Assembly: GCF_002113885.1 (NCBI RefSeq)
Contig: NW_018480011.1
Coordinates: 305,854-366,043 of the forward strand
Direction of reading: 5' to 3'
From: Mizuhopecten yessoensis
Taxonomy: Eukaryota
Length of the DNA: 60,190 nucleotides
Of the stretch, positions 12,128 through 58,978 are shown one piece after another. The stretch's first letter is position 1, and every line of letters starts with the position of its first letter. The notes beneath the pieces were generated by a model that worked only from the letters and a program-made list of their open reading frames with translations, was not told the DNA's origin and did no database searches. The translations under genes and the position numbers were made by a program.

Positions 12128-12213
12128 TAACTGTTGCACAGGACGAACTATTTGACGACGTGATAGCAAAACATATGACGGGCATTGCTTTAGAAGTGAA
12201 ATATTCACTGTGA
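12128..12213 (+). pseudogene. Relict copy of the SULT-0 terminal exon
   Basis: Aligns to 1077-1162 (TVAQDELFDDVIAKHMTGIALEVKYSL*). About 40 nt containing the acceptor and the GEVGDWKNC codons are deleted. Confidence 0.9.
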
Positions 12214-14545: not shown

Positions 14546-14723
14546 CAGACCCGTACACGTTCGCTGTTCCACCTTGGACGCAAACGGTACGGAAGTGCTA
14601 CGCAAACGGTACGGAAATGCTACGCAAATGGTACGGAAATGATACACAAGTGCTACGCAAACGGTACGGAAATGCTACGCAAACGGTACGCTGAAAGTGG
14701 AACAGCAAACGTGTACGGGTCTG
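14546..14723. mobile_element. 178-bp MITE with TA TSD (Tc1/mariner-type) and internal 22-nt tandem repeats
   Basis: TIR CAGACCCGTACACGTTCGCTGTTCCAC / GTGGAACAGCAAACGTGTACGGGTCTG, flanked by TA on both sides. The empty site (taagtTAgcattc) is present in duplication copy 1 near 3365. Internal unit GCTACGCAAACGGTACGGAAAT. Confidence 0.9.
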
Positions 14724-20976: not shown

Positions 20977-21333
20977 TAGACATTTACCACAATTGGTTAT
21001 AACTAGATCGCAATTTCTATCTTTTTAATATTTTCAATCTGTGAATGAACATGGAAAATGATTTTGGTGTGAAAAAAAAGGTCATTGGTTTGGGAACAGT
21101 CCAGCAAAAAATAAAAACCGAATAAATCATATGGTCATATTTAGCCTATACTTCTATGTTTTTATTTTTAACTTTGATGACATCTGTTTCAAGACAAAAG
21201 GGTGGTGATTCAACTTTCACCCACATATGCATTTATAGTGTAAGTAGTGTAAGGTGATTTAGAGGTGATACATACTACAGTATCTTATATGTAGTACATT
21301 GCTATTCATACTTTAATTTGTTACATCCTAATA

Positions 21334-22749: not shown

Positions 22750-23074
22750 TATAAACATTACAATCGAAAGTGACTGTTTCTTGTTAAAAAAGTCAATAAT
22801 GCTTTGTAAACGGAAATAACTCAAAACCTACCGATAACTTTTAAGACTTTCATTTTCATCAATCTACAAACGTAAAATTTAACATAATATACCATTTAAT
22901 CTTGCTTCAAGATAACTCAATATTATGAGAAATAAAGATGATTTCGAAAGACGAACTGAGAAGCTTAAAATAGATAGAAATTACCAAAAAAGCGCTCCAA
23001 AATCGAATTAAAAAACCAAACGAAAGCAAAAAGTTTACTTCCTGCATATAGAATGTGAAGACCAACCTGGTCAT

Positions 23075-23703
23075 AATCAGTAAGAATAAAATCGTAATGA
23101 TGGACTGGATCATTATTTTGTTGTACAGAAGACAGGTTTTTGAAATGATTGAACAGTTGATTACCATTACACATTGGTGTTTTAGCTTTCTTCTTACCAA
23201 ATTTCTTATAAAAAGACCCGGGGTTATGTTTTCTCATATACTCCAACATATCACCTTCTGCGCTCAAATATTGCCTCTTAAACTTACTTTCCAGGATTTT
23301 GTACTCTTTTTTCTTACGGATTAGAAGAGTGTGTGTCCAGTAACATTTGTTAATGTTGAAATTCTTTAAAGAAACTAAATAATGTTTACGTAGAGCTCTA
23401 ACACGATCATTAAACCAGGGCTTATCTTCGGAACTAGAAAAGGTATGGGTGTCAACTTTAACAGGGGGCTTATCAGTGTTATTTTTGGGCGGTTTTCTTA
23501 GAAAAAATGGTTTCATAGTCCCAAGTAAAACATCAGTAAAATGACTTACACAGGTATCAATATAAAATTGATTTAATTCATCATTGATTAAAACTGATTT
23601 CTTTATTAAGTCTAAATTAACTCTTAAAGATTCGATAAACTGATGTTGGTACTCCTCCTTCCATTTATACACAGGTATATCATTAAAATTACCATCATCA
23701 TAC

Positions 23704-23740
<37 letters not shown>

Positions 23741-23925
23741 CATCACCACCTCCTAAATAACAGTGTATTTCAAAGTGCAATAGAGCATGGTCGGAAAATT
23801 CAACAAATTCGTAAACCATGATTTTTTTAACAACAGAAAACATACTAAATGGCATTAATACATAATCAATAACACTCATTCCATTTGCACCAAAAAATGT
23901 AAAATCACTAGATAGATTGTCTAGG
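23075..23925 (-). mobile_element. LINE ORF2 fragment (APE-endonuclease C-terminus plus linker) with (TCA)n poly-Asp expansion
   Basis: ORF 22965-23981 contains FTFFGANGMSVIDYVL...FSDHALLHFEI (APE IDY/SDH motifs) and KPWFNDRV...RKKKEYK linker. Truncated before the RT domain. Confidence 0.8.
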
Positions 23926-25594
23926 TCTCTAAACATAACATACATACATATATATCTTATTACCGCAATTCTCCTTGACAACTAACATATGGGTAACAAA
24001 TTATTGGAACATTTGATGGCAATAACACATCTAAAATCGCCATGTCGCTAGTACTACATGTAATATCCGATTATAACAAAAAGAATCAACGATGCTCGGC
24101 AAAACAATAACAATTAAAAATAGAAATAACGTTACATAGTGGCGTGCCAATAATATAATATATATCCAGTGCATCTACATCCATACAATGTGTATATAAG
24201 TACATTGAGAAAAAAAAAAAAAAAACCAGTTTCACATGTCTACGTATGGATGGAAACCACAATAACTGATAACAAAAATCCACGTGGTTGGGTACGTGAT
24301 CCGTCACCTGTAAAGATCGAATTTGGCAGTTCTTGTAATAATCAAAATTTTCTTTCTTTAAAAACTCCATACCCATTCTTATGAGTATGTTTCCAGCTTT
24401 TGACCTTGACATCATACTGTTTGTCTGCAAATAGATAACTGTAGTTAAAATAACGTCAGCCGGCCCCTTGACACTTTAAATTATTACAGCGGTCACAATC
24501 TAGACCGAGTTAAACAGTACAAGTTCGATCAGCTTAATGATGAAATTCTTCCAGTAAAAGATCACGGTTCGTGATCGATTTATTAAAGATTACTTCAACG
24601 CGGTTGCTTCAGCTTTTTATTGAAACGTTTGTTTACAGTCTATATGATAATGAAGTTGCTAAATAAAAAATACAAGTTTACTTGCACTGTATTGGGTTGA
24701 AAATTCCAAGAAACGATTGAGTTGTGAAGCTAACAAATATTTGAATGAATCAGTTACGAATTTCACCGACATCTACTTCTAAATGTTGACGGGCTATGCT
24801 GTTGGGGTGGTGATTAATTAGCACATAGCACAGTCCAGTTGTTCACCCCAACGTTAGAATGGGTCGTGTTCAAGCACACACATACTCTGCATGACCTTTT
24901 GGAAACAGAGTGCCTGTACAGGAGTATATGAGTGACCATGTGACAGAGACTTCATAAAGTGCCTCAGCTGGAATATTGTGAGTTAACCAATGGTTTTAAT
25001 ATCTTATTTTATTTTAACAAAATGATCTTGCTTTATCGCTTAGTATTTGTTTATTAATTTTAATGCAAATGAACGAGAACGTTATTTGTAATTTAGCATT
25101 ACTGGTACCGGTCCTTCTTCTACTTCTAAATAGTACTGACCATTTTCAACAATTTGAAGATAAAATGTCAGACGAAGAGTGAAACATGGACAGAGATTGT
25201 TTTTAAAAGATACGAGATGGTCTAATTTGCGTTTTGTAAATCATATATTTAGGTTGCTAATTTAGTATCATACATATATGAACACCGATACAAGCAAGCA
25301 TATATACATTTTATTTTTAATGCCGTTATAAATAATGTTTTAAATACTAAATTGAAATTTGTTTTTAAAAAAATCTGCAATATATTGTAAACAATTGCTT
25401 TATATTTGGAAGGTGTGCATACTTTTTATATCGTTCACAAAATTGTGTTGGGGGCTAGGGCGAATTATGAACACAGAATCAAAAGAATCAACATCAAAGG
25501 AGTTACCACCCTTTATACGAATTAATCAATATATAATATTATCTTTTACTGACACTATACACAACTTTCAGCGCATGTTGTGATTTATTTTATT

Positions 25595-28635: not shown

Positions 28636-31600
28636 ATGGAGATGCGACAGGTAACAGACGCTGGTGGAGCTGCTCTCCATTATAAGTACTTCGATGGTAT
28701 CTACTTCCCACCAAATGTCATAGGTGATGTGAAAAGTCATTTGGACGCGATAAAAAAGTTAAAGCACAAGGATGGAGATGTGCTTCTTGATACCTTCCCT
28801 AAAACAGGTATGTAAACCTTTGCTTTTAAAGGAAATTTTAGTTTTCCTAAAGCATACTTACCGTCTAAGACATAGATATGCTTATTGTCGCCAAAACAAG
28901 TATGCAAACCTTCCAAAAACAGGCATGCTTACAAGTACGCGCAATCACCTGAAACAGGTATAGTTACCTTCCCTAAAACAGGTTTGTTTACTTTCCCAAC
29001 AACAGGTATGTTCACCTTACCTAAAGAGATATGCGTATGTTTCTAAAGCATTTGCTTAATTTTCCGAAAGATATGTGCAACCTTCCTTAAACAGGTATGC
29101 TAACCGTACCTAAAACAGGTACGATTACATTTCAAAAGGCTGATAAAAATGTCTCCTTTAAACAGGTAAAAGCACATTGTAATTTCAGTTTTACACTTTA
29201 ATGCCACCATACGAAATTACAATGTGATAGGAGTAAACGTCAATCGTTTGCGTTTACAACAAAATGTTGCATATCACTTTCGATATTTTGTAAACACCCG
29301 ATCAAATCAATATGCAGCTTCATACCAAGGCAGTGATGATAATTCATCAAAAGATGTAAAATTATGAGATTACTTCTCTTAAAACAAATAATTTATTTAC
29401 GGATATTACGTCGTAATATTTGCTTTGATTAAATAATAAAACGAAAACCATCAATGAATAAAGACAGATTATAAACATTAATTTCGATACGAAATTATCA
29501 AAATAAAACTGCAAGCAGGATGACCACCACATCAAACCCGGACATGGAACCTGCTTCTTCATTTGGGAAAAAATACAGATTATTGTGACTTGTCACATAA
29601 TCCTCCATCATGTCCATGAATGTTTCAATGTTGACTAACAGTTATTAAGCCTTTAACTACGTTCACATTGAAATATCATCGGAAAAATGAGGAAGGCATG
29701 GCTACTGTACGTCATCGTATCCCTCATGTCAAAATAGTTTGATTGTCAAAGAGTTAGGTAATGAGGAATGCATGGTATCTTTAACTAACTGCAAGTATAG
29801 GCCTTTTCTGGAAGATGATGTGATGCATGACATTTGGATATTGACTCTAATATGTTTTTTTCATTTTAAATCATTAGATGTCACCTTTCTTATTAATTGT
29901 TTGGATGTTATATTACCATAACGCATTGTGTTCGAATTACATCTTGTTTTGACTTTCGTGTCGGTTCATGGTTCACCGTAGTTTGGTGACCCTCTATTAC
30001 TGTCGTTATTTCGCCTTGTTGACTTTGAGTTGTGACTTTAGTCTTTCCTGTTTACAAGTGATGATTTATTTGTGTTTGGTGGTTGAATTGAATTTTAAAG
30101 GTGATAATAATCCGGTGCATTAATTTATATAATTTATCAGTTTTACGTACCTTTCCTTTATTCCAAACTGTAGTACAAACCATATTGGATTTACATCCTT
30201 CTGGCCAAAAGCATCATAAAAGGGCAGTATGGTGCGGTGATAATTGTTTTTGTCATACTGTATTATCAATAACCAAGTGTGGCAAGTAGTGAAGGCTGGC
30301 TGCCGTCACTACAAAATCAACACTAACATGTAACCTGACACAATTAACAATATTAATAGTAATATACACCATTTATATAGCGCCCTATATAATTTGTAAA
30401 ATTACTCTAAAGCGCTTTACAACATATGGATTATAGTAATGGTTATAATTGGTAAAACAAAAAAACAAAGGCTTACAATCACTTGTATACATTTAAGCAA
30501 GCATTGTGCACATATTTGAACAAATAAAAGGGTGGCATTTACATAATATCTTTGCAAAGATTCTAAAATGCAGACGTGAAGAGGTGAATTTTGGTGTCCC
30601 TTTTGAACTTGGCCAGGGTATTTGGTTTTCTATTAGCAGATGGTAAGCCATTCGACAACGTAGCCGAAACCCTCCTTAAGCATCTTTTTGCGTTGGTCAC
30701 AGTACGAGATTTTGGGACACACCAAATTCTAACTCCTACCACAGTGATCGTGACGGCTAATACAGGGTAGCAAGCTCATGTAGGTACTGATGAGCTGTTC
30801 CATTCAGCGCTTTGTATGTGTACACCAGAATATTGTACCGCGACCTGTATCGTACATGTAACCAGTGCAACGAATAACGCACATGTGTGATGTGCTCACT
30901 CTTTCGAGCACGAGTAACTAGCCGTGCTGCAGTGTTCTTGACCCTTCTTTAGAAGACTAGTCAGTTTGTCAGATATAGTACAGAGCAGGGCATTACCTTA
31001 ATCCAACCGAGGGGTAACAAGTGAATGCACCAAAATCTTGCATGCATCTGCAGTTAAAAACTGCGGAATACAGCCGTTGTTCCTGATCTGGTAGTAATAG
31101 GATTTGGCAATAACGTTCACTTGTTTCTCCATGTTCAGTGAACTATCAAAGTATACTCCTAGGTTTTTAACAGCTGGAACAGTCTCAATAGTTCTGGCAC
31201 CGACCTTGAGCTTGAGCTGGAGAGCCATTGTTTGCTGACACTTTGGGGAAAAGACGATTAGTTCCGTCATTTCCTGATTAAGCTTAAGCCTGTTGTCGTT
31301 CATCCAGATATTGATATATGTCAGACAAGCTTCCAACCTTCTGAGACTGATCCAACTGTCCTGTGGTTTGATGACCATGTAAATTTGTGTATAGTAATGA
31401 TAGCAAAGGTTATTGCGACGACAAATATCTCCAATCGGTTTGGAGTACATATAATTTTTCCGTGGTCCTAACACCGACCCTTGAGGAACCCGAAATCTAG
31501 TACTTTGTCACGTGAGGTGGAAGATCCGATTGCAACACACTGTCGTCGTTCACTCAGGTAAAATTGTATCCAGCATAGTGTGGTATCAGTCACTCCATAA

Positions 31601-34600
31601 GAGTATACCAGACGTTTATAAAATATGCCATGGTCGACGACGTCAAATGCAGCTGACAAGTCCAGCATGACAAGCACCGCTCTGCACTTGTTATTCAATG
31701 CAGAAGCTTTATCATTATGTACACGTAGGTGGGCCGTCTCAATAGAGTGTCCAATGCGGTAGGCCGATTGCATGTTGTCACGGAGACTGTTTGAATGGAG
31801 ATGAACCTCTAAACGCCGGGACACAACCTTCTGCAAGATCTTAGACAGAAAAAAGGCAGATTTGAAACTGGGCGGTAGTTTTTCAACTCCTCCAACTACC
31901 AGAAAAAATACCGTAAAACAAAAGTATAAACGTTTTCATTTTTCCTATTTTTTGAATGTGTGTCCTTGCTTCAAACTTGTAATTGATGTGATTTTTCAGG
32001 TACACATTGGGGTTTTGAAATCATCCATATGCTAGTTACTGGGAAGGCGGAATACTACACACACAAAACTCTAGCGCTTGAGTTTGAGCCGGCGGAGAGT
32101 CATGACGCCCTGGAAGCCCCTAGGGTACTCACGTCACACTTGTTTCCTCAGCACATACCCCAGTCATTAATTGAAAACAAATCGAAAATTGTATACGTCT
32201 ACCGCAACCCCAAGGATACCGCCGTGTCCATGTTTTCTTTTTTGAAAATCCTCAACTCAGAGTTTCTAGATGGCTACGAATCGTCATGGGAAAACTTCTT
32301 CATGTCTTATATGAAAGAAAAAGGTAAGATTAACGATACAAACACTATATTGACATAGGTAACTTGCAAATCGTAAGTCGATGGCAGAAATATGTCTTTT
32401 AGCGGTCTTGTCACTGATAACATGACAATACCATACTCTCAACCTCTGTGACAAATATTATTTATTTCCTGCAACAATGTTGTCAGCTAAATAAAAAAAA
32501 GACCGATATGTTAACATGAGCGACTTCTTTTCTTTCAGATACATCAATGTCTGTTGAAAGGTTCTTATGATCAATATTGCATATTAGATTTATTTTGGGA
32601 CTTAATTACTGAATTTGAATCGTTGATGCCATACACTTTAATGGATTCCCTGGCAAAAAATAAGCGCGACATGTATTACGAGAAACGACCGCCCACTCAG
32701 GGTAGCTGGCTTGGCATCAGTTTTTAAGCTTTATTTCAGTTAACGTATACCAGTCACTTATATTATTTTCAAGATAAACAAAATTAATTCCCTCGCGCAT
32801 TTTAAAGCGTAAATTGATTTTTTTTAACAGATTAGTTTTCATTTCCGTTGAATAACTTTTGTTAATTTCAAACACAACATTACCCTGTTGTAACTTATGC
32901 ATGTTTATTGTGTATATATGGAAACCGTTGACTAATACGGTCACGTTCTAGTTCGTACCAAAATTTGTACAAGACATGGTAATATTTGAACTATTTTTGA
33001 TGCAAGATAGAAATATAACGGTATTGTTAGTAGGGTTTCATATATGTAACAACGCTAAACCGGGTAAGTGGAGAATATCATGACGACATAGACTGTGTCC
33101 CATTATATTATTTTAACTAATTAAAACAGTAGCTTTATTATTTAACCGGTAGAAATATACTTTATTACATTTTACCAGTGCAATATTGAAACTTATTCAT
33201 ATTATAAAAGTGATATTTTCTCTACTTTTCACTTGTAAAAAATATCACCTTTGGTGATTCGACCAAACAAAACCTAATTACAAACTACCCTTGGAAACAT
33301 CACAAGTAGCCCATCTGGTAAAAGCCTGGTTAGCTTAACGATACGCAGGCCTCGAGAAAATCCGTCTGAAACATCATCACATTCCACTGCCCAGAATATT
33401 TATCCGTCAACTATGACGGGGGAATTAATCTCTAGGGGGAACACAACGTTTAATTTCACAGGTAACTTTCCTTTTCATGAAAGTCAGCAGACGTTGCAGG
33501 TTGGCAATTCTAACTATTTGATCGTAAAAACTCCTATCAATTGAAACACGATATCAGCGTCTCTAAGGCCAAAGCTAGGCTAAGCCATTGGCAGAAATAA
33601 TAGCTAAAGTCATAAGTTAAACTTACAAAGGCGGTGTTCTTATTCTATTATCAGGAAAAGTGGTGACAAAGCAACGTTGCATTTTCCCCACTCCCAACCA
33701 TTGAAGAGTCGGCGCTTATTAACAACGCGTAGTGATCTGAGATGATATGAGGGGACTTTTTTCTAAATAATTTAATTATGGTGGTTATTTATCATTCTTC
33801 ATTTAAAATATTAACGTGAGCGCTTCTTAATAAAATTGAATAACTAAAGGAATTTAATTAAAGGTTTTTCACTTTTTAAAGAGGGGACTGTACTTTCTTG
33901 ACTCGTAGAAATGTCTAGACATGCTAGTTGTAAAAGTGTCGTTTAACGTTCCGGGATAGGTTTTCTTTTTCAAACATGTAATAAACAGAATATCTAGCAA
34001 ATTATCTTCAATAGTACCAAATATATTTTACTCGTGTGGCTAATATTTTGTGCACTCTTGAAAATATCAAGATGTTAGCAAAAATCGTGAAATAAACGTG
34101 TTATCACTTGAACACTGTTAGATATTCTCTATATTGTTAGATATTCGTAAATCATTTTTTTATTGGCTATTGTGTGTTCAGTTCAAACAATATGTTTAAT
34201 TATTGTTTCATTTTCTTGTCAAAAGTACCTTACAACTCCTGGTTTGAACATCTAAAAGCATGGCTGGATTTTAAGAAGTCACATCCAGAATTACCAATAC
34301 TGTTCATCGCATTCGAGGATATGAAAAAGGTTGGTCCGGACAAACGAAAATGAATTTTGCTCTACAATTGTCTCATTGAAGGAACGGTACTGACTGGAAT
34401 GAAACCTTCATTCTTGAAATTAAATCAGTTCCAATCGGCTAAGTTGAAAATATATACTGGGATACATCCGTTTATTTGGGATACTCTTGTCAATCTGACA
34501 ATTGTAAAATGGAAGGTGTGTCTACCGGCTATCACATTTACATTTATCATGTAACACACTAATTTGTTTCCTTGTGCGTCTTACCATTTCATTTTGTACA

Positions 34601-37600
34601 GCCATTAACAATCTTCTTTCGTGTTTTGAGAATGTATTTATTTTCATTGGGTTGAATACATTTTGTTTTGTAATTGGATACCTGCTCCCCTTTTGTTTGA
34701 CAGAGCGAGGTCAGGTTATGCCATACCGCGCTGTTCAATGCTCGATTGTTGTTTGTTGTCTTCGTCCGTCAATATTTTCGTTAAAAGCTCACTTCTTCTA
34801 AAAAACTTATCAGATTTAAAACAAAGCATAAAAAACGTTTAGGACCAGGAAATTAAATGATGTATAAACGATGGACAGACGATGGTGCAGAAAATGTAAA
34901 TATGTGTCTTTTATAGACACATACTATTTTAGTTCATATACGTGATCTATTTTATCATGTAGAATTATTTTATAACACTCGATGTAAACAAATTTGGAAA
35001 AAAAGACTTTACCCCTGAATGATTTTTTCTTAAGCATCAAAGAAAAGAGTTAGCGTTCTTTCCCATTGATTATTCCGGGATTGAGAGAATCACATTTTGT
35101 ATAAATGAACTGTTTGCCTCCCCTTTCACTTAGGCAGAGAGACGGGCTTTTTTGAATCGATACAAAGTCGTAGATGGCCGCAGAAGCATCTGATTATGTT
35201 TATAATTGTCTCCTTCATCTGAACTTCCCTTAGGTCTGTTTTGACAAAATATTTCCCATGTGAGGTTTTTGGAGAGTTGTTTAGTTTTAGCACTATTTGT
35301 AAACAGATAGAGGGGACTACCAGTTCTGTATTAGGCAAGGGGAGGGGGGGGGGGCTTTTATTTCAAAATGTGCTCTGATTGGCTGGATATTTTATTTATG
35401 TTTATACCTCTAGATTACTTATGTTAGTCCAAATTTTGTAGCTTTTTGAGGCAATAAGAAACCTGAAATACACTCATCTTTGTTGGACATTTTTTTAGTA
35501 AACAATAGAAACAGATCTGGTTGGTGTTTTGTTTGAATCAATTTATTGTTGGTTCATTTTGTACCAATACATTGTCAAAAGTTTTATTGTTGTAAAATTA
35601 AGGTTATTTCTTTATAACTCTGTTTCTTTCACTTAATATTTTCTTCAGGACTTACGAAGCAGCGTTCAGAAGATCGCTAAATTTCTTGGGGTAAAACGAG
35701 ATTCGCAATTCCTGGAGGAAGTGGCGAATAAATGCCAGTTCAATGCCATGTCGAGAGAGAAGAAATGTAAAGATGAAATGAAAATGGGTATTGGTGGAAA
35801 AAACCCATTCTACAGGAAAGGTACATAGCTATGTTTTAATACCCTGTTGCTAATTTGTTTAAAGAAAAAATATAAACATAATAATTCCTCATTTCCGTGT
35901 GTCCAAAGGAGAGCAAACCAGGGTAAGAAAGAAATGTAAAAGTTTCTATCTGACGATACGTCACAATCGCTCAACAATGACGTAACGTTACGAATTTGGA
36001 AAACGATGCTGCAATGCGGAAAAGGCGGAAAATGCGACGTGGTGAAGTTCAAAACCTTTTACGATATATTTCCCGTTAACGTTAGAAAGATGAAGTTAAT
36101 TTCGTCAAAAGAGCTCAGAACAAAATTATATTTCAAAATGATATCCATTCCAAACGCATTTTCATGTTTTTTTAGGTTATTCTGGTAGTTGAAATGAAAG
36201 ACAAATACTCTATCTTGCCGCGGGGGGAAGGATAGGGAAATTCCACCCTCGGGTGTTACAAAGTGTACCGAATTTGAAAACCCCTTGGGTTGAATTTCCC
36301 TATCCTGCACCACTAGGCATGAACTAGTATTATACTACTCTTCCTAAACTACAGCGATAACACATATATACAGGTAAGACTAAATTGCACATACACGAAT
36401 GATGATATTACAATCAGAAGAAATAGAATATTAAATATACTGGTAAGATTGCATTGCATATATTGAAATGACAAACAAATGAAAAGTTGAGATACATCAT
36501 TGTAATACAGATATACAGAACAACTAATATCATAGTTTTTAGGTAAAAATGACAAAATACAGATAGTGTCATGCAATGTCGTACAAAAGCTCTGTTACAT
36601 TTGCATTTTTCGATATAAACTTAAAATACAGAATTATGCCAATCTTGATTTTATTATCATTTGTATCTATTGTTAACTAAGTTATTGGACAATTATTTCT
36701 GTTGATTTTATTATGTTAAGTTGACATAATGTTACAAAAATCAGCTATTATGTAAATTTTCAAAAACATTGTAATTCTATCAATACTCGTCAGTCCATAA
36801 AACAGTCGACCAGTCCACTGATGCCCAATTTTCATGGCTGTGTGTAAATGTCAATCTTTTCCGACGATGGGTAGCAGTCAAAAGTGTTTTTTCGACAGAA
36901 ACACAGCCTTTCAATCCCGCATTGTGTAATCGTCTCCTCACTGTGGTATTCGTCGTTCAAACCATTGGTATCCTTGCGAGATCTGAGGCTGGTCCGGACT
37001 AATAATCTATCATCCCGAGGGGTAGAAATCCGTGGCATGCCAGAACGTTCTCGATCCTCATAGTTCCCGGTATCTTGGAACCGTTTAATGGCCCTGTACA
37101 CGTTCTGTCTGCAACAAAAGAGAAACAGTGAAACAACTATAGACAGATTCTGGATAAGTAAATATGCAAATGCACCGAAATCCGCGATGAAAACTTTCAC
37201 TTACCTACTGGTTCCTATTGTTCTTGCAGTTTGGGCGGCAGCAACACCACTTCAATCCTTCTTCCCTTATCATTCGCTGCATTTCTTCTCATGAGTATTT
37301 GCAAAGTGATTGAATAGTACAATTATACTTAAGAGATAACAGATAATCAATGAATGGTGAATAGTGATGTATTTTGTCACTTCAAATTAAAATCAAAATA
37401 AGACATCGAGTACAATAAAGTAAATCTTCAAGCATCTGATAGATTGATGTAAAATGTGAAATAACAGAATTGTTTGATAAAACCCTTTTTGTGATTCAAT
37501 TTGGATAATCAATGATGGCACATCATCTTTATCACATTATATCCCTTTTCATTAATAGAAAAAGATTTAAAGAAAATATTTTTTCCAATAGTTTTGTCAA

Positions 37601-44400: not shown

Positions 44401-45129
44401 GTCAGAGTTGATTACTCATTCATTCCTTTGTATCCATAGTAAATGTTAACGCCCGTTTAAAAAAAATATATATGTTCCAACAGTTAGTTGTGGCAGTCTT
44501 ATTATCTTGATTCAAATATATTTTTCTTTGTGTCAGCAAGGTAACATGCTTTCAGACTGTAGCTTGTTTTGTTGTTAATATTAACTACTACACACAATCA
44601 GAAAATATAAATTGATGTTGAATGGTAATTTATTAATGACAGATTAAAAGATTGTGACACACATGTTCGCAATTTGTATTATCAAATACTAGTTATGTTG
44701 GAAAATATATATATCAAAAGTACATTTACTTCTGTTGTATATGTAACAAGAAAGGTGGGGTACAAATGATAAGCATAAGGTGCACTTTTCTACATATCAT
44801 GAGTTCATCCATGTATGTATATTGCGCTCCTCATCGGTGTCTTTCATGTGTACCCCAAATGTGTTGTAACATATAAATTAATTCTAAAATGTTCTTAAAC
44901 ATGTTTGCCCCATCGAATGAACTACTAGAAGGATGTCAGCATTCTTGTCCGAGTATAAATTTAAGTGTATTGTAATACTACCGAAACACTTTACCGTTTC
45001 CTGTATCGTTCAAAATACAAGCGTGAAGTTGGTTACTCATTCAATATTGGGTCAGCCAAAAAAAGGACAGGCTCAATATATGGCAGGCCTAATATTTAGG
45101 CTAGTCTGATATTAAATTGTTTCTAAAAT

Positions 45130-45560
45130 AAACAGTACCCCAGGCTTAAGAGTCCCACAGGGCACTTTTTCTGAGTTCAGTCTAATATCGTCATTTTTTC
45201 CTTTTGTACGTGTCAGGGCATATTGGTATAGGTCTTATGCTGCTTTTTACATATACACCACACCAGTGCATCCACTAAGGTATTCACATGCAAAAGGGCA
45301 TCAGCGATACCCAAGGCTAAAGATGCTTACTGGGCACTTTCTTGAATTTCAGTTGTATTAGGGCACAATGTTACAGGCCATTGGGCACCTTTTCATACCT
45401 ATGCAACAGTAGGGCATCGTCCAAGGTATTCACATGCAAAAAGGCACCATGACACTCCAGGCTAAAGATGCCCATAAGTCAGTTTTTTCGAATTTAAATC
45501 TAAAATAATTATCTTTTCGTTTTGAACGTGCCTGGGCATGTCTTATGCCGCTTTTTGCCA
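45130..45560. repeat. Degenerate tandem repeat, ~3 units of ~150-170 bp
   Basis: Recurrent aggctwaagatgcc..gggcactttt and aaggtattcacatgcaaaa.ggca. Confidence 0.6.
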
Positions 45561-47917
45561 CCTATAAATATTATATAACATGCTTTGACATTCATGGAAA
45601 GTGAGAAATTGTGATACTATTATTGAAATGTAAAAAATCCCAGATGACTGCTTGAAAACCATCGTGCTTTTTATCAGTCACCAAATGCAATATACCTCAT
45701 TAATTAGGGTTGGGTATTGCCAACATTTTGATATGCTTCTTCAAAATGCAATATATATTGCAGGCTTTTAGGAACTATTCATGAGTCTGAGACCACAATG
45801 TATCCAGTCTCAGAGCTTTGTCTGACAGTTTGTGATTTCGTATTAGTGGAAGGCCGTTACCACCAATAAATTAATTCCTGAATGTCGTTTCATGCAAGCA
45901 TATGCAAATCTGTATGAAACGGTAAAGTTACAATCCACACAGATTTTTTATTCTTGCATTTTTTTTTATCTCTCAGTTATCTCGGATACAGTTGTAGCTA
46001 ACTCTCTCAAGAATACGCAAAATTATAATGAAATTTCTGCTTCGTATTTTGTATTGAAATTATGTAAATACAAAACGTAGTTTAAAAATATAAAGAAAGT
46101 ATTTTTAGTGTAATGTATCAATTAGTGTTAGTCGATTAACCGGTCAATCGGTCGGAAGGACACGAACCGGTTACCAAAAGCAATAACTGAATATTCGGAT
46201 TTTTACTTACCTCTTTGGGGAGCCCCTTATTTCCCTGGCTTCATCTTCAAATTATCAATAAATGGGACCAAAATCAGATATTTTTGTAATAAAAACAGTG
46301 TTCAGTGATAATATGTTAGTTTTAAGTTTGTGCTCAATTGCAAATACTGACAAAGAAATGCCGACAGCGCCATAAAAAATATTAACACATTTTTAAAAGG
46401 AAGCCAGGATAAAAAAGAAAAATGTGAAAAACTATTTTTAAGATATAGAACGTGCTTTTACATGCGAGATGTACATATGATTTGAAGTGGTCACACTTGA
46501 ATGAACAAGCATGTCCTAACAATGTTTGTCATACTGTTCTTAAGAGCAATATTAACGCATATAATGTCGAGTACAGATACATGTAACTGTAATTGAATCC
46601 CCTCTTACTGCATTTCGACATTTGTTGTCTATGATATATACTTACTGAGGCTGCATGCAACTATTTCCTGCGACTATCCTGACATACGCGAGTAAACTAT
46701 CATGGTAATTATTATATACATGTATGTGTGTGGTGTTTAAACGTTTTAGAACATTTTCTACACACATAATGTGTTTGTTGCTGTTTAATACTTGATTACA
46801 AAATTGACCTCCTAATCGGTTACTCGATCGTAAGATTGTTCGAGTTACTGGTTACCAAAATATGACCGGTTTGTCAACCCTAGTATCGATGAAAAAAACC
46901 ATTACTTTTCCTCACACGATTTTTCTTCATGTTTTGTTACATTACAAGAGCACTGGGGCTATGTATGTACTCCTTAACATTATTTGTATTTTCTATCGTG
47001 CATATGTCAAATCTGCTCAGCGTTAGTGGAACTTATCAGGGCCTGATCACCAAGGAACGCGATGGATTGATCCTTTGCGGGGTTTCGTGATATCATTATA
47101 TAACACGAATCGCGATAGATCTTGGTGATGCGGTCATCAATGCCCCTTATTAGCATTTGAATTAAAGGTCACAATTATTAACCGCTTGAACGAATATTTT
47201 GTCATGATGTCGGGAAGGCAAACTCTGACGACTCCCTAGGACTGGATATGTACAGATGTAAGTGCAGGTTGAAATTGCCATTCATTGGAGGTTTAGTTCC
47301 GGGCGACACAAATAACAGTTCGTAAGAAAGTTTGTAATTTGCGGAAATGGTCCCGTAGCTCTGAGTATAATTACACCTAGATGGTGAATTTAAGCTAATA
47401 TTGTTCGGTTTTACAAAAATTGCTGATGTTCCCCGTTGCACTAGTAATGTAGATAGTCCATGCTTTTAAGATTATGAGTGCGTACAGCTTTATGTTTATT
47501 ACCAAGACATTATAGACTTGATCAGGTTAACAAGATTAGAAAACGAAATATAGAAGTGTGTTTCGAAAATCTTGTCAGCAAGATTAAATTTTTTTTCATT
47601 ATAAGACACTGTGCGACATTGTTGTAAACACAATTATGTGTAAAAAACGAAATATTTATTATTTTAGACTAAAATTTGAAAAGGTTTCGTTGATGCCCTT
47701 TCGCATGTGTAATAACTTAGATGATGCCCTGTGTAGACTATATGTCTGGAAAAGCGACATAAGACCTATTATTTGAGTGACGTTTGAATATCAACCTAGT
47801 CCAGTATAAAGCCAGCCCAACATTAATCAAGTCCACTATTTGGCTAGCTAGATATTGAATAAGTAACCAACTTCACCGTTGTGTAAAGTAGTACAAAAGT
47901 AAGGTTTCGGGCCAGGT

Positions 47918-48003
47918 TCATAATCATTAAGTACCCCCGGTACCCTCCTTGTGGCACCCCCTTTGGTAGGAGGGTTCCCAATTTGAGTGCAGCCAATACA
48001 CAG
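47918..48003. repeat. Polinton left TIR (inverted partner at ~55829-55935)
   Basis: GTGGCACCCCCTTTGGTAGG / AGGGTTCCCAATTTGAGTGCAGCCAATACAC match the reverse complement of GTGTATTGGCTGCTCTCAATATGGGAACCCT...CCTACCAGACGGGGGTGCCAC. Confidence 0.85.
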
Positions 48004-48074
48004 TACGCTCTTTCCCATAACATGGGGTCTTGAAACATTCAAGGGTAGTTCACTCTCCTACAAATCGGTTACAA

Positions 48075-49118
48075 TTTAGGCCAATGTAGCCATTTGACGT
48101 AGAGTTGTTTGTTACGGCCTTTTCCTCTAGTTTTCAATATGGTTTCCACCTTCCACATGTCATCTTCCATTACGTCAACTTTCTGTAGCTCGGACTGATA
48201 GAAAGTACCTTAAATTTCATCACCATCGTAATGCGTGACTCTTTACACAGGTAAGCCTCCACGAAGTATCTTTTGAGATGTGGTAAATATCTCCCCCGTC
48301 CAATTTTCGTCGTATTCCCGTGTGAATGGATTCCTGAGATGTGACAAACGCACTTTATCCCCTACTATAAACTTTACGAACTTATTTAGTCTTTCGAAAG
48401 ATCGGCTCTTTCTACGGCCAGTACATCCTCCACCAGACAGATATTTCGTTATTTTTGTTAACCTTAGTTGGAGTTGTCCCTAGGGTCATGTGATACATCT
48501 TGTTGTAGCTGTCGGCGAACGTCTGGAGTTTTGTCACGTATTCGTAAATCCTTAAGTGTGTAAAAAATCTATACATTCTTGACTTGATGGTCTTGATAAC
48601 GCGCTCGGACACGGCAGCCTTGGTTTCGTTCTCGGTATAAAGATGATGGATGTGGTATTGATTTAGAATAGAGTTTACTTCCTGTGATCTGTATTCTTGC
48701 CCCTTATCGGTGCGAATCCTGCTAGGTTGTCTCCCCTCGCTGAGAATCTCACGAAGAGCCTTTGTTGCGGATGCCCCTGTTTTGTCTTTTAGAGGATTCA
48801 CCGATAGAAATTTTGAGTACACGTCTATCACCACGAGAACGTAGGAATAACCGTTGTTTTCTTTCTGAAACTTGACCATGTCCATGAGATCGGCAGATCA
48901 TTGTTCGTCGATTCCAGTCACCAAGATTCTATTTCGTTTGAATGGTCTTCGGATAGATCGCTGAAGGCTGTACGGTTCTTGTCGCTGTAACCGTTTTCTT
49001 ATCTTGTATTTCCTGATGACGTATTTTCCAGCTTTTCTCACGTATCGATACAATTTATCAGGCCCAAAGAAACTCCCAGCATTGGTAGGATCGTAATAAA
49101 TGTCTCTTAAATAACCTT
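48075..49118 (-). pseudogene. Polinton retroviral-like (RVE) integrase with C-terminal chromodomain, disrupted
   Basis: YYDPTNAGSF, Q*SADLMDM (D), IRTDKGQE (D), AVSERVIKTIK (E), GTFYQSELQKV, WKVETILKTRGKGRNKQLYVKWLHWP (chromodomain, truncated). Confidence 0.92.
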
Positions 49119-49140
49119 CCCTCCTCCTCCTCCTCCTCAT

Positions 49141-49174
<34 letters not shown>

Positions 49175-49694
49175 CACATCTCTTCTAAGACATGACGGTT
49201 CTTTTTGAGTGCAATCTTGATGGCTTTGCGATCCTCATAACCATCGTCAACGAATTCTACGACATCTTCCATGACTTTATCGTGAACCGATCCGTCTTGT
49301 TATTTAAGAATGTACCGGATAATTAACCCGTATTTTTCATTAAATAGATCCATGTCTTTAGATTTCATCTTTTCGTTTGCTTTCTCCTGGACTTTGCCTT
49401 CAGACATATCTTCAATTACGTATTTCTCATACTTTTGATTCCATTTCTCCTCGTTTGCAGATCTGACTTCATTCATCATGCTATCGAAAGCTTCGTGTTC
49501 TTCAGTATCTCTATTTCCTCGCCGGACTCCATATCTTCATATGCGATCCACCTTTTTGGTTTAGGCTCATCTTCTTCGTCTATAGATTCTTGTTTTCTTT
49601 TAAGGCTGTCGTTTTCCTAACACCATTTTTCCACGTGTCTCTGTAAATCATGCATGTCTTGGAATACAATACCACAATCGTCACAGGCAGGCAT
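49119..49694 (-). pseudogene. Polinton accessory ORF: CxxC...HxxxxC zinc finger, helical region, poly-Asp tail
   Basis: MPACDDCGIVFQDMHDLQRHVEKWC*...MEDVVEFVDDGYEDRKAIKIALKKNRHVLEEMWDDDDD. Contains internal stops; function unknown. Confidence 0.6.
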
Positions 49695-49786
49695 TGCTTC
49701 TGTTTCTAAGGACAGCTGTTAATGTTGTTGTTGTTGATGCTGCTGCTGCTGGTAATACGGCCGCTCGGTTGGAGTGTCAGCCTCAA

Positions 49787-49821
49787 AATGATCCTTAGTT
49801 TGGTCTTTCTGCCCTTTTATA
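49787..49821 (-). promoter_or_regulatory. TATA + TCATT initiator promoter upstream of the zinc-finger/acidic ORF
   Basis: TATAAAAG (first T at 49821) with TCATT 30 nt downstream; ATG at 49694. Confidence 0.6.
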
Positions 49822-49829
49822 GGCTGTCC

Positions 49830-50633
49830 AGAAAAAAACATCACTGCGCATACGTAATGACTCGCGTGTTGATGGTTTCATATCGACAAGAAGATACCCG
49901 TACGGCTTGGTGCTGGCTTCCTTGAAATGTCTCATCAGGTGTTAAACATTTCCAGGGTACATCTGTTTGGCTAAAGTCATGATCTGCTGTTTATCGATGG
50001 GATTATTGAACAACACCAAATAGTGACAATTTCTCCTCTGTGTGGGGTCTTTATTGTAGTAGAGGTTCTGATTGATGGCAAACACAGACATGTTTCTGTG
50101 GTGGCTTCCCTCCGTAAACTATTCGTTAATTGCTTGCTGTCGACATCAGATTGTCCAAGGCGACAAGGTTTCTTACTCCTGGATACAGGAAGGAATCCTG
50201 GTCTAAATCCAGCGGTATTCCCTGAATAAGTTCAACCTCTGGTATAACGGTTGTCTTGATAACGTCATAGAGGGGCTGCCATCGTTTGTAGAGCCATACA
50301 ATCCTTTGTGGAGGAGGTGATATTTTGGTCAAGCAGTTTTGTAGCAGTAACTTGACAAAGTAAATCTTTCCACAAGACGTTGGTCCCGATACATTTTGCA
50401 GTGAAGGGGTGTTTAAAAACGAAATTCTGCTGCTGCTGGGTAAATAAAGCATATACCGGCTGCTTCATAATGTCTATGTAGGATTGTTGCTGCTGCTGCT
50501 GCTGCTGTTGTTGTTTTGTTGTTGCTGCTGCTGCTGCTACTGCTCCTGCTGCTTCGTGACTCCATCTCCATTGATGTGTGTGTCGTACGTGACGTTTTAT
50601 ATCACTCAAGCAAATATGACACTGGTACTTCAT
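49830..50633 (-). pseudogene. Polinton A32/FtsK-like DNA-packaging ATPase with N-terminal degenerate zinc finger and poly-Ala/Gln
   Basis: FKHPFT, frameshifted Walker A VSGPTSCGK, Walker B LVALDNLM, FTEGSHHRNMSV, QNLYY, NCHYLVLFNNPID, KPYGYLLVDMKP. Confidence 0.9.
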
Positions 50634-50665
50634 ATCGATGTGCACTCTTCGGTGTTCAGGTATGA

Positions 50666-50699
50666 AATGAGATTTTTCCAGTCGAATCCTCTATTTATA
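50666..50699 (-). promoter_or_regulatory. TATA + TCATT initiator promoter upstream of the ATPase ORF
   Basis: TATAAATA (first T at 50699) with TCATT 29 nt downstream; ATG at 50633. Confidence 0.65.
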
Positions 50700-50959
50700 C
50701 TCTCACAGGTGTTGCATTAGGTTAAATGTAAATAATAAGACAATTGCTAGTTTATGACATTTTATTACATGCACCAAAGATACGTCATATGTACAATAAA
50801 GAACCTACTCTAGCATGGACAATTTACACATTTGTATTACTCAGTGTCATCTACAACCCAATTTGTAGTACTCAGGCGATCTCGTGTACATCTTTTCCAT
50901 GAAACAAGGTCCTGACATGTGACCTTTCTAGGGTAGTTCACTCTCCTAACTTGATATTC

Positions 50960-53900
50960 TTGACCATACGCGTAGCTAGTGATCCCATCGTCGAGCAAAT
51001 ATCGCTTGTCGTCGAATGGTGATATACCCCTTTTGGTCATGGACACGTTGTAAAGCTGGTGTCTATATCTGATTCTTTTGGGACAGAAAGACTTTCTTTT
51101 GGAGAAGACATTTCTTATAATGCCCGAAACGGGTATGATTTTCGATCACATATTTCTTGATGCCTTTAGCTTTTTTCGATTCTACGTAAGTTTTTACCTC
51201 TTTGCCATCTTCCGTAACGTCATGTGTGTAGGCATACATTTCGGCCTTGAGTCTCACAATGGCATTAATGGCGTTTCCGTGGGTCTCGTCCTTCATTTTC
51301 CCGCACTCTTTCTTGTTTGTTAAGCTGTAGAGGAGGTGGTCTTTCTTATACTTCGATGTGTCGAATAAGTGTCGGTCTTCTAGCATGTCTTTGTAGATGT
51401 CCTCTGTTCTGATGATGTAGACCAGATAACATGTGTCCGTAAAAAGGAGGTATGCCCTCTTTCCAAATTTTTATTTGATGTAGTTGTTATGGAAGTCATA
51501 TATCATTGTTTTGGAGATATCCAGGATGGAGAATCCGACATAGATGGGTCGGTTCAAAAAAAGTTTCGATTTAAGCATGTGGACAGCTACCAAATCCTCC
51601 GTGAAGATCCTGAATTCATGGAATGTGGGCTTACATGTTAATTTCATGGCCTTCTTCTCACTGTTGACAAGTTTGACATCCATCCTCTTCCTTAAATTTT
51701 CCATAGTCTTCCCGAAAATGCTGTTGTTCAATAACTTGTAGAAGTCTTGCTCGAAATTGTTTCTAGATTGTTTCCTTTTCTCCGTATTGTAATCAATATT
51801 CGTCTTCAACCATGGAGACTGTTTGAAGGTTAATACTTTGTGGACTTTTGTGAGCTTCATTCCAAAAGAAAGATATTGTTTCAAGTTCCTATAATGCAGG
51901 ACATATTTTTCCTTGTTTCTAAGATTAGGAACGAGTTTTTGTGCGGAATTGTAATGATCCAAACAGTCATATGGCTTTTCATCATCATGTGGCTTGCTTT
52001 CCTCAGTCTGTCAGCTTATGCCATAAGGTCTTACTGTAGTCAGACAATTCGTCTTTCCCCACGGCTACTCGTTCTGGGGCCAGTAGATATTCGTTGTGTG
52101 GGTCGTGGAGTGCTGGAGGATACTCTAAATCCACTTCCAATATATATCCATCTGTCGCATCATCGGGAACTGTTGTGATATCAATCGTGTCTTTGCGGTA
52201 TCGGTAAGCCATGCGAAGTCATGAGTTGGCAGGCATTGTGACATGGCCCAGCCATACAAGTTATTGGCGTCTAAGTAAGTGATGTAATATGTTGGTTTTG
52301 TTTTGTAGTGTCCGGGAACGTATGGATTGTTGGTCTCAGCAAACCGATAACTAATCATTGATACGTGTCCCGCAAGCCTTTCTCGATAAATAAGCGCTGA
52401 TCGATGTCGGTAAGCAGTTCGAGTCTAACATCGGTTATTTTTAGCGCTGCTTGCCATGCTAGTCAAGAGGCGGTATAACAATGAGCTGCATCGAGCACAT
52501 ATGATTCCAGACATAGTTGTCGGAAGTTCTCAAACACATCAGCAAGACCCAGAACATCTGTTATGACATACAGGTCCGAATATTCACCAAGATTGTGTAT
52601 ACATAATTATTTCCAGACTTTGAGAGTGTGATCGTATTTTTCATCGAATACGTCCTCTCCCGTCAGACTTCTACGAAACGCTTCCTTTGGCGGTAATACA
52701 GTTTCTTGAAATCTGTGAGGACCATCAAAATAATCATATGGGTACACCTGCTTTTTTAAAAGGTGCTCGATTTTCTCCTCACCAAAATGTTGTGTCATGT
52801 GTTCAAATTTATCCTTTCCTTCCTCGGATAAATTTGCGATCAGTTTATCCAGTGATGCGCCCATAAACTGGAAGCTGTCGATAAAGTCCATTCACCCTAT
52901 GGAGAAAGAAATGTACATATCCATGTTGTTAGGTATACACTTTATTTCCTTATCTGACACTTTTCCAACTGCCTGCATGATTAGATTGGAATCGTAACCC
53001 CTCCGATTGTGGAAGACGACCGGAATCCGTCCAGTAAATTTGAAATGTATGTTGCACTCATTGTGAACTACTCCTCTAAACGCTCCTGTCACGTGGCAGT
53101 GGTTCCTCACTCTGTCATCTCCTAACTCCTTTCCACAAATGTTCCAATCGCTCCCAGTCATGACCATCGCCTTCACGTTTTTGGATTTTTGTTCTATGTC
53201 CTCCTGTTCTCTCAGCATACATTCTACAAACGTATCAGTAACATCCGGTCCTCTGTAGACCAAAGGTTTCTTAGATGTTGCTTGTGTGAGCCCTACGACT
53301 TTGTAAGCGAAACTAGAAGGAACATGTTGTGTGGTCTTCTCTGTATGTGATTTGTTTGGGTCAACCTCACATCTATGCATCAGCACTTGGAACGACTCGA
53401 AGTCCGCATATATGATGGAAGGCACTTTAAGCTTCTTTCTTACATCCTTATAGAACAACCATTTATCCTCTTCTGTAGATAGTTTTACTTTCTGTGTCCC
53501 ATGTTCCCGACAGTATGATATATGGTAAGATATAATGTTTTTTACATGTGTGTTGATCGCTCAACAGACGATCTACATTCTTTATCCAGCAGTAGTGGGA
53601 CTTGCATCCATCCGTTATCAGCAGTAAATCTACGTGTCTGTCAAATATTTGCTTTGCCACGTGGATTGGAAATAATGACCCCTTCTCATATCCGAGGACG
53701 TTGACCGTGATCTTATTCTGTGTCTCGAATTTATTGATGTCGGCTACTTTCACAGGGAGGGATATACCATCAAAGTTCAGCTCGTGTTGGTGACCTATGT
53801 ATTTGCTGATACGCTCAGGATGATTTTTGGTCGGATAAAGAGCAGCCAGTACCGACCATATGAAGCACTTCTTGTCCTTGTTTTGGACGTTGATGATGGC

Positions 53901-54735
53901 GTGTTTAGACCTCAGTTTGATTGGCAGCGGAATATAGCTTGATCCTTTCAGGGGTTTATATTTTGCAAAGTGTATCTGGATTTGAATCACCTTATCCAAT
54001 GTCCAGTTACTTCCCTGTCGTTGGTATTCTGTAAACGAATTTTGAATTTTTCTGATGGATTCCTGCATACCTTCATCGATGTCGGATGAATTAAAAGTAA
54101 TCTGACACTTTCCGCGAAAATGTGGCGAAACCACCGTTCCACTGTCTCCTCTTTCGGATTTGAGAATTGTACTTGAATAGATAAATACCATTTGACACCT
54201 CCCTGGACCATAGATTTCTCTAATTTCTTCTTTATTGTGATGAAGAAATGTCATGATGTCTAATTTGGCTTTGGCCTATGCAGGTAGAGTGACAACTTGA
54301 AGATTCCCTTGAGTGCTTCCTCTGAGCATTCCTCAGTCTCCGTTTGGTGGATCACCGGTTTGGATGTGGGGTCTACAGCCGGAAGTGTCTGTGTAAGGTC
54401 GTTCTCTTTGTTCTCGTCTTTATTTTCATCCACCACTCCTCCCTGCTGATTAAATATATGGTTCTTCAAATGTTCGCGGTATTTGTCAGTCCTCCAGAAA
54501 GATTTTCAACAACACAAATGCAGTGGTTCCCCGTGGACTTTCATGTGCCATGTAAGCCTACCTTTCCTTCCGAACTCCTTTTGGCACACATTACATATCC
54601 ATTGTTGACTCCATGACTAGATGTATGTCTATTCAATGCCTTCTGGTGTTCAAACGTTTTATCACAATGGGGACATGACCATTTACCCTTCTTATCCGGG
54701 TGTGAAATACTGGCTAAGGCCTTCCTCTTCGACAT
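50960..54735 (-). pseudogene. Polinton protein-primed family B DNA polymerase (pPolB) with N-terminal C2H2 fingers, many frameshifts
   Basis: C2H2 WSCPHCDKTFEHQKALNRHTSSH; QGSNW..GSSYIPLP..INVQNKDKKCF; ExoI YADFES; EndoVII-like VRNHCHVTGAFRGVVHNECN; ExoII FHNRRGYD; FIDSFQFM; motif A YLDANNLYGWAM; motif B YKLLNNSIFGK; degenerate motif C FTDTC; KAKG; DDKRY. Confidence 0.95.
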
Positions 54736-54814
54736 GCTGAAATGTATCGCAGTGTTCTGTAGAGTTACTATAGTCACTCTGACAAGATCTTCCTCCTCTG
54801 ATTGTCTTCCTAAG

Positions 54815-54849
54815 AATGATTATTGCTTGATTCCATGCCTTTATTTATA
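54815..54849 (-). promoter_or_regulatory. TATA + TCATT initiator promoter upstream of pPolB
   Basis: TATAAATA (first T at 54849) with TCATT 30 nt downstream; ATG at 54735. Confidence 0.65.
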
Positions 54850-56661
54850 CCCTCTGTAACCATCGATGACATTCGTGTAATTTCATTGGCTAAATCAAAT
54901 TTTACAGATTTATTTTGTAAATTTTGTTTCATTTGTCTTTTTATTTTTAAAGCGATCGGACGCATTTTAAATTTCTCCCAAATCAATCGGAACCTGAAAA
55001 GTTTTTTTTTTATTTATTTATGTTGCTGATAGTGAGCCTCGAAGCCTAAATGTTGCGACACTGAAGCTAAGGTACCACCGCCCTAGCTGTCACGACCAAA
55101 CGCGCCCCGACATTGAAGGTGTATTTCTAAACTATGTATACACAGCGAGGTTAAATTTACCTACGTGATACGATACACATATAGATGTTTGTATACACAT
55201 ACCTCTGCCATTTGCAATGATGACATACACGGTGAATTTATCGCTGTGGAAGGGAAACATACAGGTTTGCAGATTAACGAATTATACCGGGATAGTAAAA
55301 CAGTAAACTATTATAACTTATGGCAGAAATGTTGAAGGCTGTAATGTATACAACACGATATTTGTTAAACAAAATTGTCCGTTGGTAGCGTAGTTAAATG
55401 TGGGATTCATTTACAGATACATTTAGAGTACACATAAAGAACGTAGGCTATACGTTATTGGAAATGCTATAATACAGTTCAGTTTTGAATGCGTAGAAAA
55501 TGTTTGGTTAACATAAAAAGTGTGTGACCTAGTCAATTTGGTTTTATACAACGGAGTCAGACATAAACAAACAGCGAGAGCTGTCTGTGAATATTCGTTG
55601 TAAGAATGGACGTTGGGTGGGTCTCTGACCCGTGTTTTTTCTATCGACAGAGACAATAAATGGTTTTGCATTATATTTGCGTTGTTATTGTATTATGTGC
55701 TAGAAGGTTCCAGGACATCACCGATCCGGTTGAAACCGGTTTCGATATTTCTAAACGTGATGCAATCGGGAAAAACCCGTGACGTCGTCGATCGGTATCC
55801 TCATATAGAATGGGGGTTGCCACTAGAGGGTGTATTGGCTGCTCTCAATATGGGAACCCTCTGTGACGTCGATCGGTACCCCCCTACCAGACGGGGGTGC
55901 CACTAGGGGGGTGCCGGGTATTATAGGATTATCATTAAAGCAAAACATGTCATTAACATATTTTCAATGACCTTGATAGCTCTGCGCTGGTCTTTTACGA
56001 TTGGCTGACTTAAGATAATATGCGACCTAGAGATAGTCTTGTTCCAAACTATCATTGTTCCCACTACATTTCGTATATATATTACATACATTATACCAGC
56101 TGACCGACCTGTTCATGCAGTAGATACTTAACAAACACTTGACGGTGCAACGTGCGGTTAAATAGAGATAAGCGTGGTTGCTAAAGGTAGTATGTGCATG
56201 CATATACAATGGCGAATTAGGTAACATATTTAGGTCATCTACGGCAGCTGAGAGCAGTAGTCAAATATTTTAAAGAGTCGTTATAAAAAATGATTAAAAA
56301 GGGAGCAATTTCTAGTTAAAAAGGTCTCGTTATCAGTGAGAAGAAAACAAGAATGTGCGGTTTTCATCTGTATTTAGCTAAGTAAGAACACTGTATGATG
56401 ATATCTATATACATGATCACGTGCGTTTTATTGATCAATACTTTCTATGCCCATCTATGATATAATCAGCGATGGGTTTCGTCGATTGACGTGTTACAAA
56501 CATGGCACCTCCTGCCATGGGAAACATGGTACATAGTACATGATAACATTCTATGGAAAGGTGTTCGAATGCCGACTGATTTTTTGGCGGCTGTTCTAGG
56601 CCATCGTACTTATCTAGCATCGGTTGAATTGATATTAGTTATTGAATCAGTTAGCATTGAA

Positions 56662-58978
<2,317 letters not shown>

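Follow-up and report, generated by a model that had tools for sequence, protein, structure and literature searches.

A 60,190-bp stretch of Mizuhopecten yessoensis DNA (contig NW_018480011.1, positions 305,854 to 366,043), hereafter the window, carries at 47887-55932 a minus-strand rve integrase, an IVa2/A32-like ATPase, C2H2 zinc fingers and a long polymerase gene, all of them broken. The element is an old, dead member of a dispersed three-gene Polinton family of ~8.5 kb, designated F1, which is mobile, capsid-less and has a conserved packaging ATPase. A sequence-only reading of the window had placed a protein-primed DNA polymerase B (pPolB), a packaging-type ATPase, a zinc-finger/acidic region and an rve integrase on the minus strand within ~8.05 kb, and all of these were found again. 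It had also drawn two terminal inverted repeats (TIRs) as boundaries, at 47887 and 55960. The left one stood, since a Polinton-type AGTAGTAC end opens the left terminus at 47887. The right one did not: in comparison with other copies the family similarity ends at 55932, the two ends align with each other over ~105 bp only, and the right terminal motif is gone. No target duplication was seen around the window copy, its right end being lost. The parts of the element are the following.

47887..48001, no strand: left terminus (AGTAGTAC motif) with shortened left TIR; ~360-410 bp of the family end region are gone at 48001/48003
48044..48060, minus strand: 17-bp motif just 3' of the integrase, likely a common 3'-end signal
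48075..49119, minus strand: rve integrase with chromodomain, broken (PF00665, E 3.5e-14; weak Chromo match)
49141..50633, minus strand: fused ATPase gene, a single gene in the family, here with frameshifts and stops
50932..50948, minus strand: second copy of the 17-bp motif, 3' of pPolB
50950..54735, minus strand: protein-primed DNA polymerase B, C2H2 fingers at its N terminus; several frameshifts and stops
54736..55597, no strand: unassigned 5' spacer; neither this copy nor two others contain an ATG-started open reading frame (ORF) of >50 aa in it
55598..55932, no strand: what is left of the right TIR; its outermost part and the target duplication are gone

The 17-bp motif occupies the same two sites, 3' of the integrase and 3' of pPolB, in other F1 copies. 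To judge from the lack of a PF03175 match, the window pPolB is probably of the Beta/pPolB1 type. The integrase is interrupted by a frameshift and by five stops in two aligned segments, and the end of its chromodomain is gone; the reading frame stops just after KWLHWP, as had been read, and behind this point 27 bases are missing at 48074 in the alignment against copy C4108. From the terminus to 48003 the window copy measures 116 bp, versus 473-530 bp in those 8 of 12 copies in which the terminal motif was found. It had been proposed that one large deletion at the ~48075 junction removed the morphogenesis module. This was contradicted by the chromodomain end, which is complete in 8 of 12 copies (frameshifted in three, and none was obtained from one). 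When the loci of the genome were compared, the 48000-48075 junction was unique to the window copy and only the capsid-less layout recurred. The junction is damage private to this copy and is unrelated to capsid loss. With 90% identity to C4108, and 56 small indels relative to another copy, the window copy is badly decayed.

F1 copies in the genome

The genome was searched with the segment 47860-48400, and 40 of 47 candidates were scored. At least 43 matches were found, and in 18 of 19 other loci the integrase end was followed by a TIR within ~150 bp, the 19th being a contig of 407 bp. Five copies had both TIRs.

C4108: 8.66 kb, both TIRs, own 6-bp target duplication
C5460: 8.42 kb, 5.7 kb of it assembly gap, both TIRs, own 6-bp target duplication
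C186: 6.4 kb, internal polymerase deletion, both TIRs, own 6-bp target duplication
C2420: 12.3 kb, nested retroelement, both TIRs, own 6-bp target duplication
C2186: ~8.5 kb, both TIRs

The TIRs of F1 copies outside the window were 246-411 bp long at 92-97%, and the exact terminal motif occurred 54 times in the genome versus 7 times for a control. Of 34 further stretches at terminal motifs, five were TIR-bounded derivatives of 0.4-1.9 kb with a perfect 6-bp duplication, most others were end fragments, and none (0/34) held capsid genes. The F1 ends work in trans, and short non-coding derivatives have been mobilised in this way. The integrases of some copies were identical (0 differences over 355 codons), therefore F1 has moved recently. 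The suggestion of a mobile capsid-less element was thus supported, as the layout recurs in independent insertions, each with a target duplication of its own. The word "defective" does not apply to its transposition, since the family has its own polymerase and integrase.

Two candidates for a capsid-bearing parent were rejected: the extra length of C2420 is a retroelement-like stretch, and C76703 holds a 6.2-kb insert without capsid-module match. One further F1 copy (L023:1711-5994) contains a perfect internal inverted duplication of 2,033 bp of the ATPase fusion gene, either a rearrangement or an assembly artefact.

The F1 pPolB is 45-51% identical to that of complete elements, and its exonuclease and polymerase motifs were read by eye. 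F1 shares with Polinton/Maverick elements (polintoviruses, adintoviruses), as characterized in PMC4028283 and Starrett 2021 (PMC8502044), the TIRs, AGT-type ends, 6-bp target duplication, pPolB, retroviral-like rve integrase (PF00665) with chromodomain, and packaging ATPase. Unlike full Polintons, it is only ~8.5 kb long with three genes, lacks both the major and the minor capsid protein and adenain, and has its ATPase fused to two fingers and a helical/acidic domain. F1 is a Polinton transposon and not a member of a capsid-defined virus family.

Gene layout and the fused ATPase

Unbroken ORFs give three genes: a finger-bearing pPolB, the ATPase fusion and the integrase, with 1,410 aa (measured in a sister family, F2), 550-570 aa and 369 aa, respectively, in unbroken copies. 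For Polinton polymerases in general the layout TP-vOTU-EXO-PALM is given by Krupovic 2024. C2H2 fingers had been thought to start three separate ORFs; only the pPolB and ATPase genes begin with fingers, and the third finger is internal to the fused ATPase protein. This protein consists, in order, of a C2H2 finger, a polyQ linker, an A32/IVa2-like packaging ATPase, a C2HC finger, an all-helical domain and an acidic tail. Pox_A32 and Adeno_IVa2 matches were obtained with the ATPases of families F2-F4 (described below), and a weak IVa2 match with the window ATPase. The helical domain was predicted to be all-helical (model pLDDT 88.6), and it is therefore not expected to be a hidden jelly-roll; no fold relatives of the model rose above background (best Z 6.8; no E below 0.09). 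The model of the full-length fusion was poor (pLDDT 53) and a PDB search with it gave no match, while an Atlas search returned zinc-finger look-alikes only.

Search for capsid and protease genes

The capsid-type, penton-type and protease ORFs of three resident families served as tblastn queries. No capsid-module match was found in 35 stretches of the compact families or in the whole window, with both controls positive (2/2), and profile hidden Markov models (HMMs) of capsid and protease gave nothing in 10 stretches, with 6/6 controls positive. The absence of capsid or protease remnants from the element, as read earlier, was confirmed in both ways. Penton (minor capsid) searches by tblastn with three divergent candidates gave no match, the control label being inferred. 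The protease control family was confirmed as adenain-like; the control ORF for the major capsid protein (MCP) was labelled by its size, conservation and position before the protease, and had no sequence match in PDB. A genome search with Pfam PF21738 gave no candidates and also missed the controls, which makes it uninformative, and the resident capsid ORFs were used as queries instead. A search of viral contigs revealed no relative.

The neighbourhood of ATPase genes was also surveyed in this fragmented assembly, with ATPase places taken from 150 of 311 candidates scored and capsid places from 150 of 237. Of the 150 ATPase rows 134 were used; the remaining 16 either had 52-56% identity or repeated a listed place as its second fragment. 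Among the places scored, none of the 52 with an F1-type ATPase (at least 60% identity to F1) had a capsid match within 10 kb; for other ATPase types the counts were 17/26 and 38/56 (55/82 together).

Sister families and relatives in other samples

Three further families were delimited in the same genome, which also contains complete Polintons of both polymerase classes.

F2, L080:477-8777 (C5244): 8.3 kb, capsid-less; relative to F1, ATPase 84%, pPolB 49% and integrase 41%; gene order differs
F3, L081:281-9751 and L083:232-9291: 9.1-9.5 kb, capsid-less; ATPase 71% to F1; Alpha-type pPolB (PF03175) with N-terminal zinc fingers
F4, L082:204-9685 (C3761): 9.5-10.2 kb, TIRs >1 kb, 6-bp duplications; integrase, ATPase, capsid-type genes and adenain-like protease

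The exact terminal motifs of F2 were counted 24 times versus 0 for the control. A 119-bp segment of the F2 TIR (L080:482-600), inverted, is 85-95% identical to a segment in the TIRs of the complete capsid-encoding Polintons C3304 and C3606 (L078/L079 and L076/L077); DNA has therefore been exchanged between capsid-less and complete families. Further F4 copies were found on C4717, C1634, C5352, C5152, C5206, C3971, C5503, C388, C5543 and C5418. No polymerase match was obtained in 11 F4 stretches, three of them gap-free from TIR to TIR, and several copies are 100% identical in protein. F4 is a young, polymerase-less, capsid-encoding family.

In a tree of ATPases (46 rows) F1-F3 and contigs from other samples formed one clade (100/97), apart from the complete Polintons of this genome and from F4. 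The pPolB tree did not separate F1, F2 and the complete families into a clear order. By their sequences F1-F3 appear as a lineage with swapped parts, in which one ATPase module is combined with different polymerases.

Of 210 metagenome loci 80 were kept and inspected; the contigs are short and inform on gene order, not on whole elements. The helical domain was present in 20 of the 80, with capsid or protease matches in 0/20 and an integrase in 11/20, while such matches were found in 19 of the 60 loci without the domain. ATPase and helical domain were jointly covered in dozens of clusters at 50% identity. A recent single deletion from a resident parent is unlikely, because the block of ATPase, helical domain and integrase recurs in contigs from other samples and the complete Polintons examined are only distant (ATPase 33-47%, pPolB ~45-51% amino acid identity). 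In contig L113 (3,022 bp) an ATPase of the F1 clade is fused in frame to a protease and adjoins a penton-like gene. In L128 (6,013 bp) inverted repeats enclose a capsid-type gene, a protease, an ATPase and a penton-like gene; neither a polymerase nor an integrase match was obtained. The metagenome contig L109 (4,242 bp) has inverted repeats at its ends around two small genes, an ATPase fusion and a RING-finger gene, and gave no polymerase, integrase or capsid match.

Selection on the modules

Rates were estimated by a pairwise counting method, in which high dS values are imprecise. Between two subfamilies, F1a and F1b, the ATPase had dN of 0.07-0.09 and dS of 1.7-2.7, giving dN/dS of 0.03-0.04, which indicates strong purifying selection on the ATPase between F1 subfamilies. 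For the integrase dN/dS was 0.09 at dS 0.2 in three of four pairs and 0.22 in the fourth, and for the helical domain, wherever dS could be measured, 0.26-0.27. The ATPases of F1 and F2 are 84% identical in amino acids, with synonymous sites saturated.

Interpretation

The debate over the nature of Polintons, virus or transposon, turns on capsid, protease and ATPase being kept or lost together. A recently mobile lineage departs here from this pattern: it has neither capsid nor protease, yet its ATPase is conserved, and its polymerase has been exchanged between the two major classes. Either there are satellites among animal Polintons, or their packaging ATPase does something else besides. The whole group would be overlooked by screens requiring a capsid gene and a length of at least 10 kb, as in the coral survey of Stephens 2024 (PMC11131425). 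Since one genome contains complete elements as well as capsid-less and polymerase-less ones, the question is testable.

Krupovic 2014 (PMC4028283) reported for nine capsid-less Polintons a concerted loss of ATPase and protease together with the capsid, and because of this the retention of the ATPase needs a reason. Table S1 of the same work lists P_Pd1.1 (Platynereis, 10,777 bp) and P_Gi1.2 (Glomus, 11,019 bp) as lacking MCP, penton and protease and having the ATPase, i.e., the gene pattern of F1, compared here by table row. They are single rows, outside the discussion in those parts of the text that stress concerted loss. ATPase-positive, capsid-negative Polintons are thus already tabulated. 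The non-autonomous Polinton-1N1_DR and 2N1_DR are likewise capsid-less and mobile, but also without ATPase; F1 differs from them in that it encodes a polymerase and an integrase itself, and a close parent of full length was not found. In the literature no description of capsid-less, ATPase-retaining Polintons as a lineage was encountered, and Repbase, the first Maverick/Polinton papers and preprint supplements (the mollusc tables of Jeong 2023) may list such elements. Other related work is found in Barreat 2021, PMC11071296 and PMC10294476.

We favour, at even odds, the reading that F1 is a self-copying transposon whose retained ATPase loads its own DNA into the capsids of other Polintons in the same host. 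In line with known Polinton biology, F1 would be excised, copied by its own protein-primed polymerase and inserted by its own integrase with a 6-bp duplication. The F1 ATPase would pack F1 DNA into capsids borrowed from co-resident Polintons, and its fused zinc-finger and helical parts would have the putative role of picking F1's own DNA and coupling it to the foreign capsid. Phage satellites (PICI, P4) and elements with virophage-type dependence have their own replication and integration genes and a packaging gene, and borrow capsids. The proposed mode resembles that of PICI and P4 in gene set; F1 is eukaryotic and unrelated to them in sequence, and its helper dependence is putative.

Several points weigh against such a satellite mode. 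A packaging ATPase as a rule serves the capsid of its own element, and the ATPases of capsid-encoding families in this genome show no more than 33-47% identity to that of F1. No helper was found: the F1 ends matched none of 19 capsid-type stretches, several of which may fall short of the element ends. Within F1 the modules form a mosaic (ATPase dS 1.7-1.8 versus integrase 0.2), and given this uneven dS the module was exchanged; part of the selection on the ATPase may have acted in capsid-bearing donors. Other samples contain members of the ATPase clade that are linked to capsid genes: L113 lies within the clade and L128 near its base. The derivatives of 0.4-1.9 kb indicate that movement within the genome needs no packaging. 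In two contig sets, X1 and X6 (guessed to be RNA, and chosen because they contain F1, which makes their coverage no more than suggestive), F1 was covered in 28 and 22 of 30 bins and F4 in 4 and 2; two runs recorded as RNA gave 7 and 21 reads on each of F1 and F4, both being nearly silent, and a search of runs listed no RNA run with F1. Finally, Polinton virions are described by Jeong 2023 as not observed so far.

A doubtful, though serious, alternative is that F1 is a purely intracellular transposon that never enters particles, its ATPase fusion having been repurposed in the nucleus to translocate DNA at the ends, to control transcription or to handle free linear copies. The architecture of the ATPase, in which a pair of zinc fingers is accompanied by a conserved helical domain and by an acidic tail, would suit such a role, as would the lack of capsid or protease matches in all 20 contigs with the helical domain, the lack of an F1 helper among the stretches examined, and the coverage of F1 without F4 in the two guessed-RNA sets. 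Cytoplasmic linear plasmids are a known case of capsid loss with a turn to non-viral life (Krupovic 2024); however, those plasmids and the nine capsid-less Polintons lost the ATPase as well. The N-terminal fingers are also present on the ATPases of the capsid-encoding F4, L113 and L128 and so give no sign of a new role, and no function was hinted at by any fold match.

It is unlikely, yet worth stating, that the families are complementing halves, in which F1-F3 would supply the polymerase and enter borrowed capsids by means of the zinc-finger ATPase, and F4 would supply capsids and borrow the polymerase. The ends of F2 start with the same ten unusual bases as those of F4, as a common protein-primed origin would require, and do not start with AGT. 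If true, an animal germline would contain a DNA virus system of a bipartite or helper-satellite kind. The mobile polB-less Polintons of butterflies (Pannagram preprint, bioRxiv 10.1101/2025.02.07.637071) are a precedent for F4, but they have retroelement cargo at the place of the lost polB, and none was seen in gap-free F4 copies.

Rather improbable in our view is a passenger ATPase, i.e., a module repeatedly regained by recombination from capsid-encoding relatives absent from the assembly, with the low dN/dS stemming from the donors. The divergence mosaic across genes would agree with this, as would the three unrelated polymerase backgrounds around one module, the capsid-linked members of the ATPase clade in other samples, and, in L111 and L114, a small gene upstream of the fusion that by eye resembles those of the capsid module. 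On the other side, in this genome the survey placed none of the 52 scored ATPases of this type near a capsid gene, the module is kept in every TIR-to-TIR copy of the three families, and 11 of the 20 metagenome contigs with the helical domain have the block of ATPase, helical domain and integrase. Simple decay, in which the morphogenesis genes of a complete Polinton would have been lost after its insertion here, had been offered earlier and would fit the battered state of the window copy, but it is refuted as the cause of capsid absence, since the capsid-less layout is common to independent insertions, each flanked by a target duplication of its own, and the junction is unrelated to capsid loss.

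Flanking host DNA and other repeats

The element had been described as embedded in a sulfotransferase cluster, and sulfotransferase exons were indeed found on either side of it. The closest named proteins come from two scallops (69% and 65%), pointing to a bivalve as the probable host. The window segments 263-10928 and 11319-23068 form a tandem duplication of ~11 kb, 79-87% identical, with sulfotransferase genes, and more paralogous exons were seen at 28651-35822, 44320 (decayed) and 56644-58719. An older repeat is present in two inverted copies, at 45017-45550 and 47640-47882, and the left end of the Polinton abuts the second. The segments 21572-22421, 22965-23981 and 30998-31935 look, by eye, like a Tc1/mariner transposase and two remnants of long interspersed nuclear elements (LINEs). 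The nearest host feature to the right of the element is given below.

56644..56838, plus strand: first coding exon of the host sulfotransferase gene that flanks the element and is not part of it

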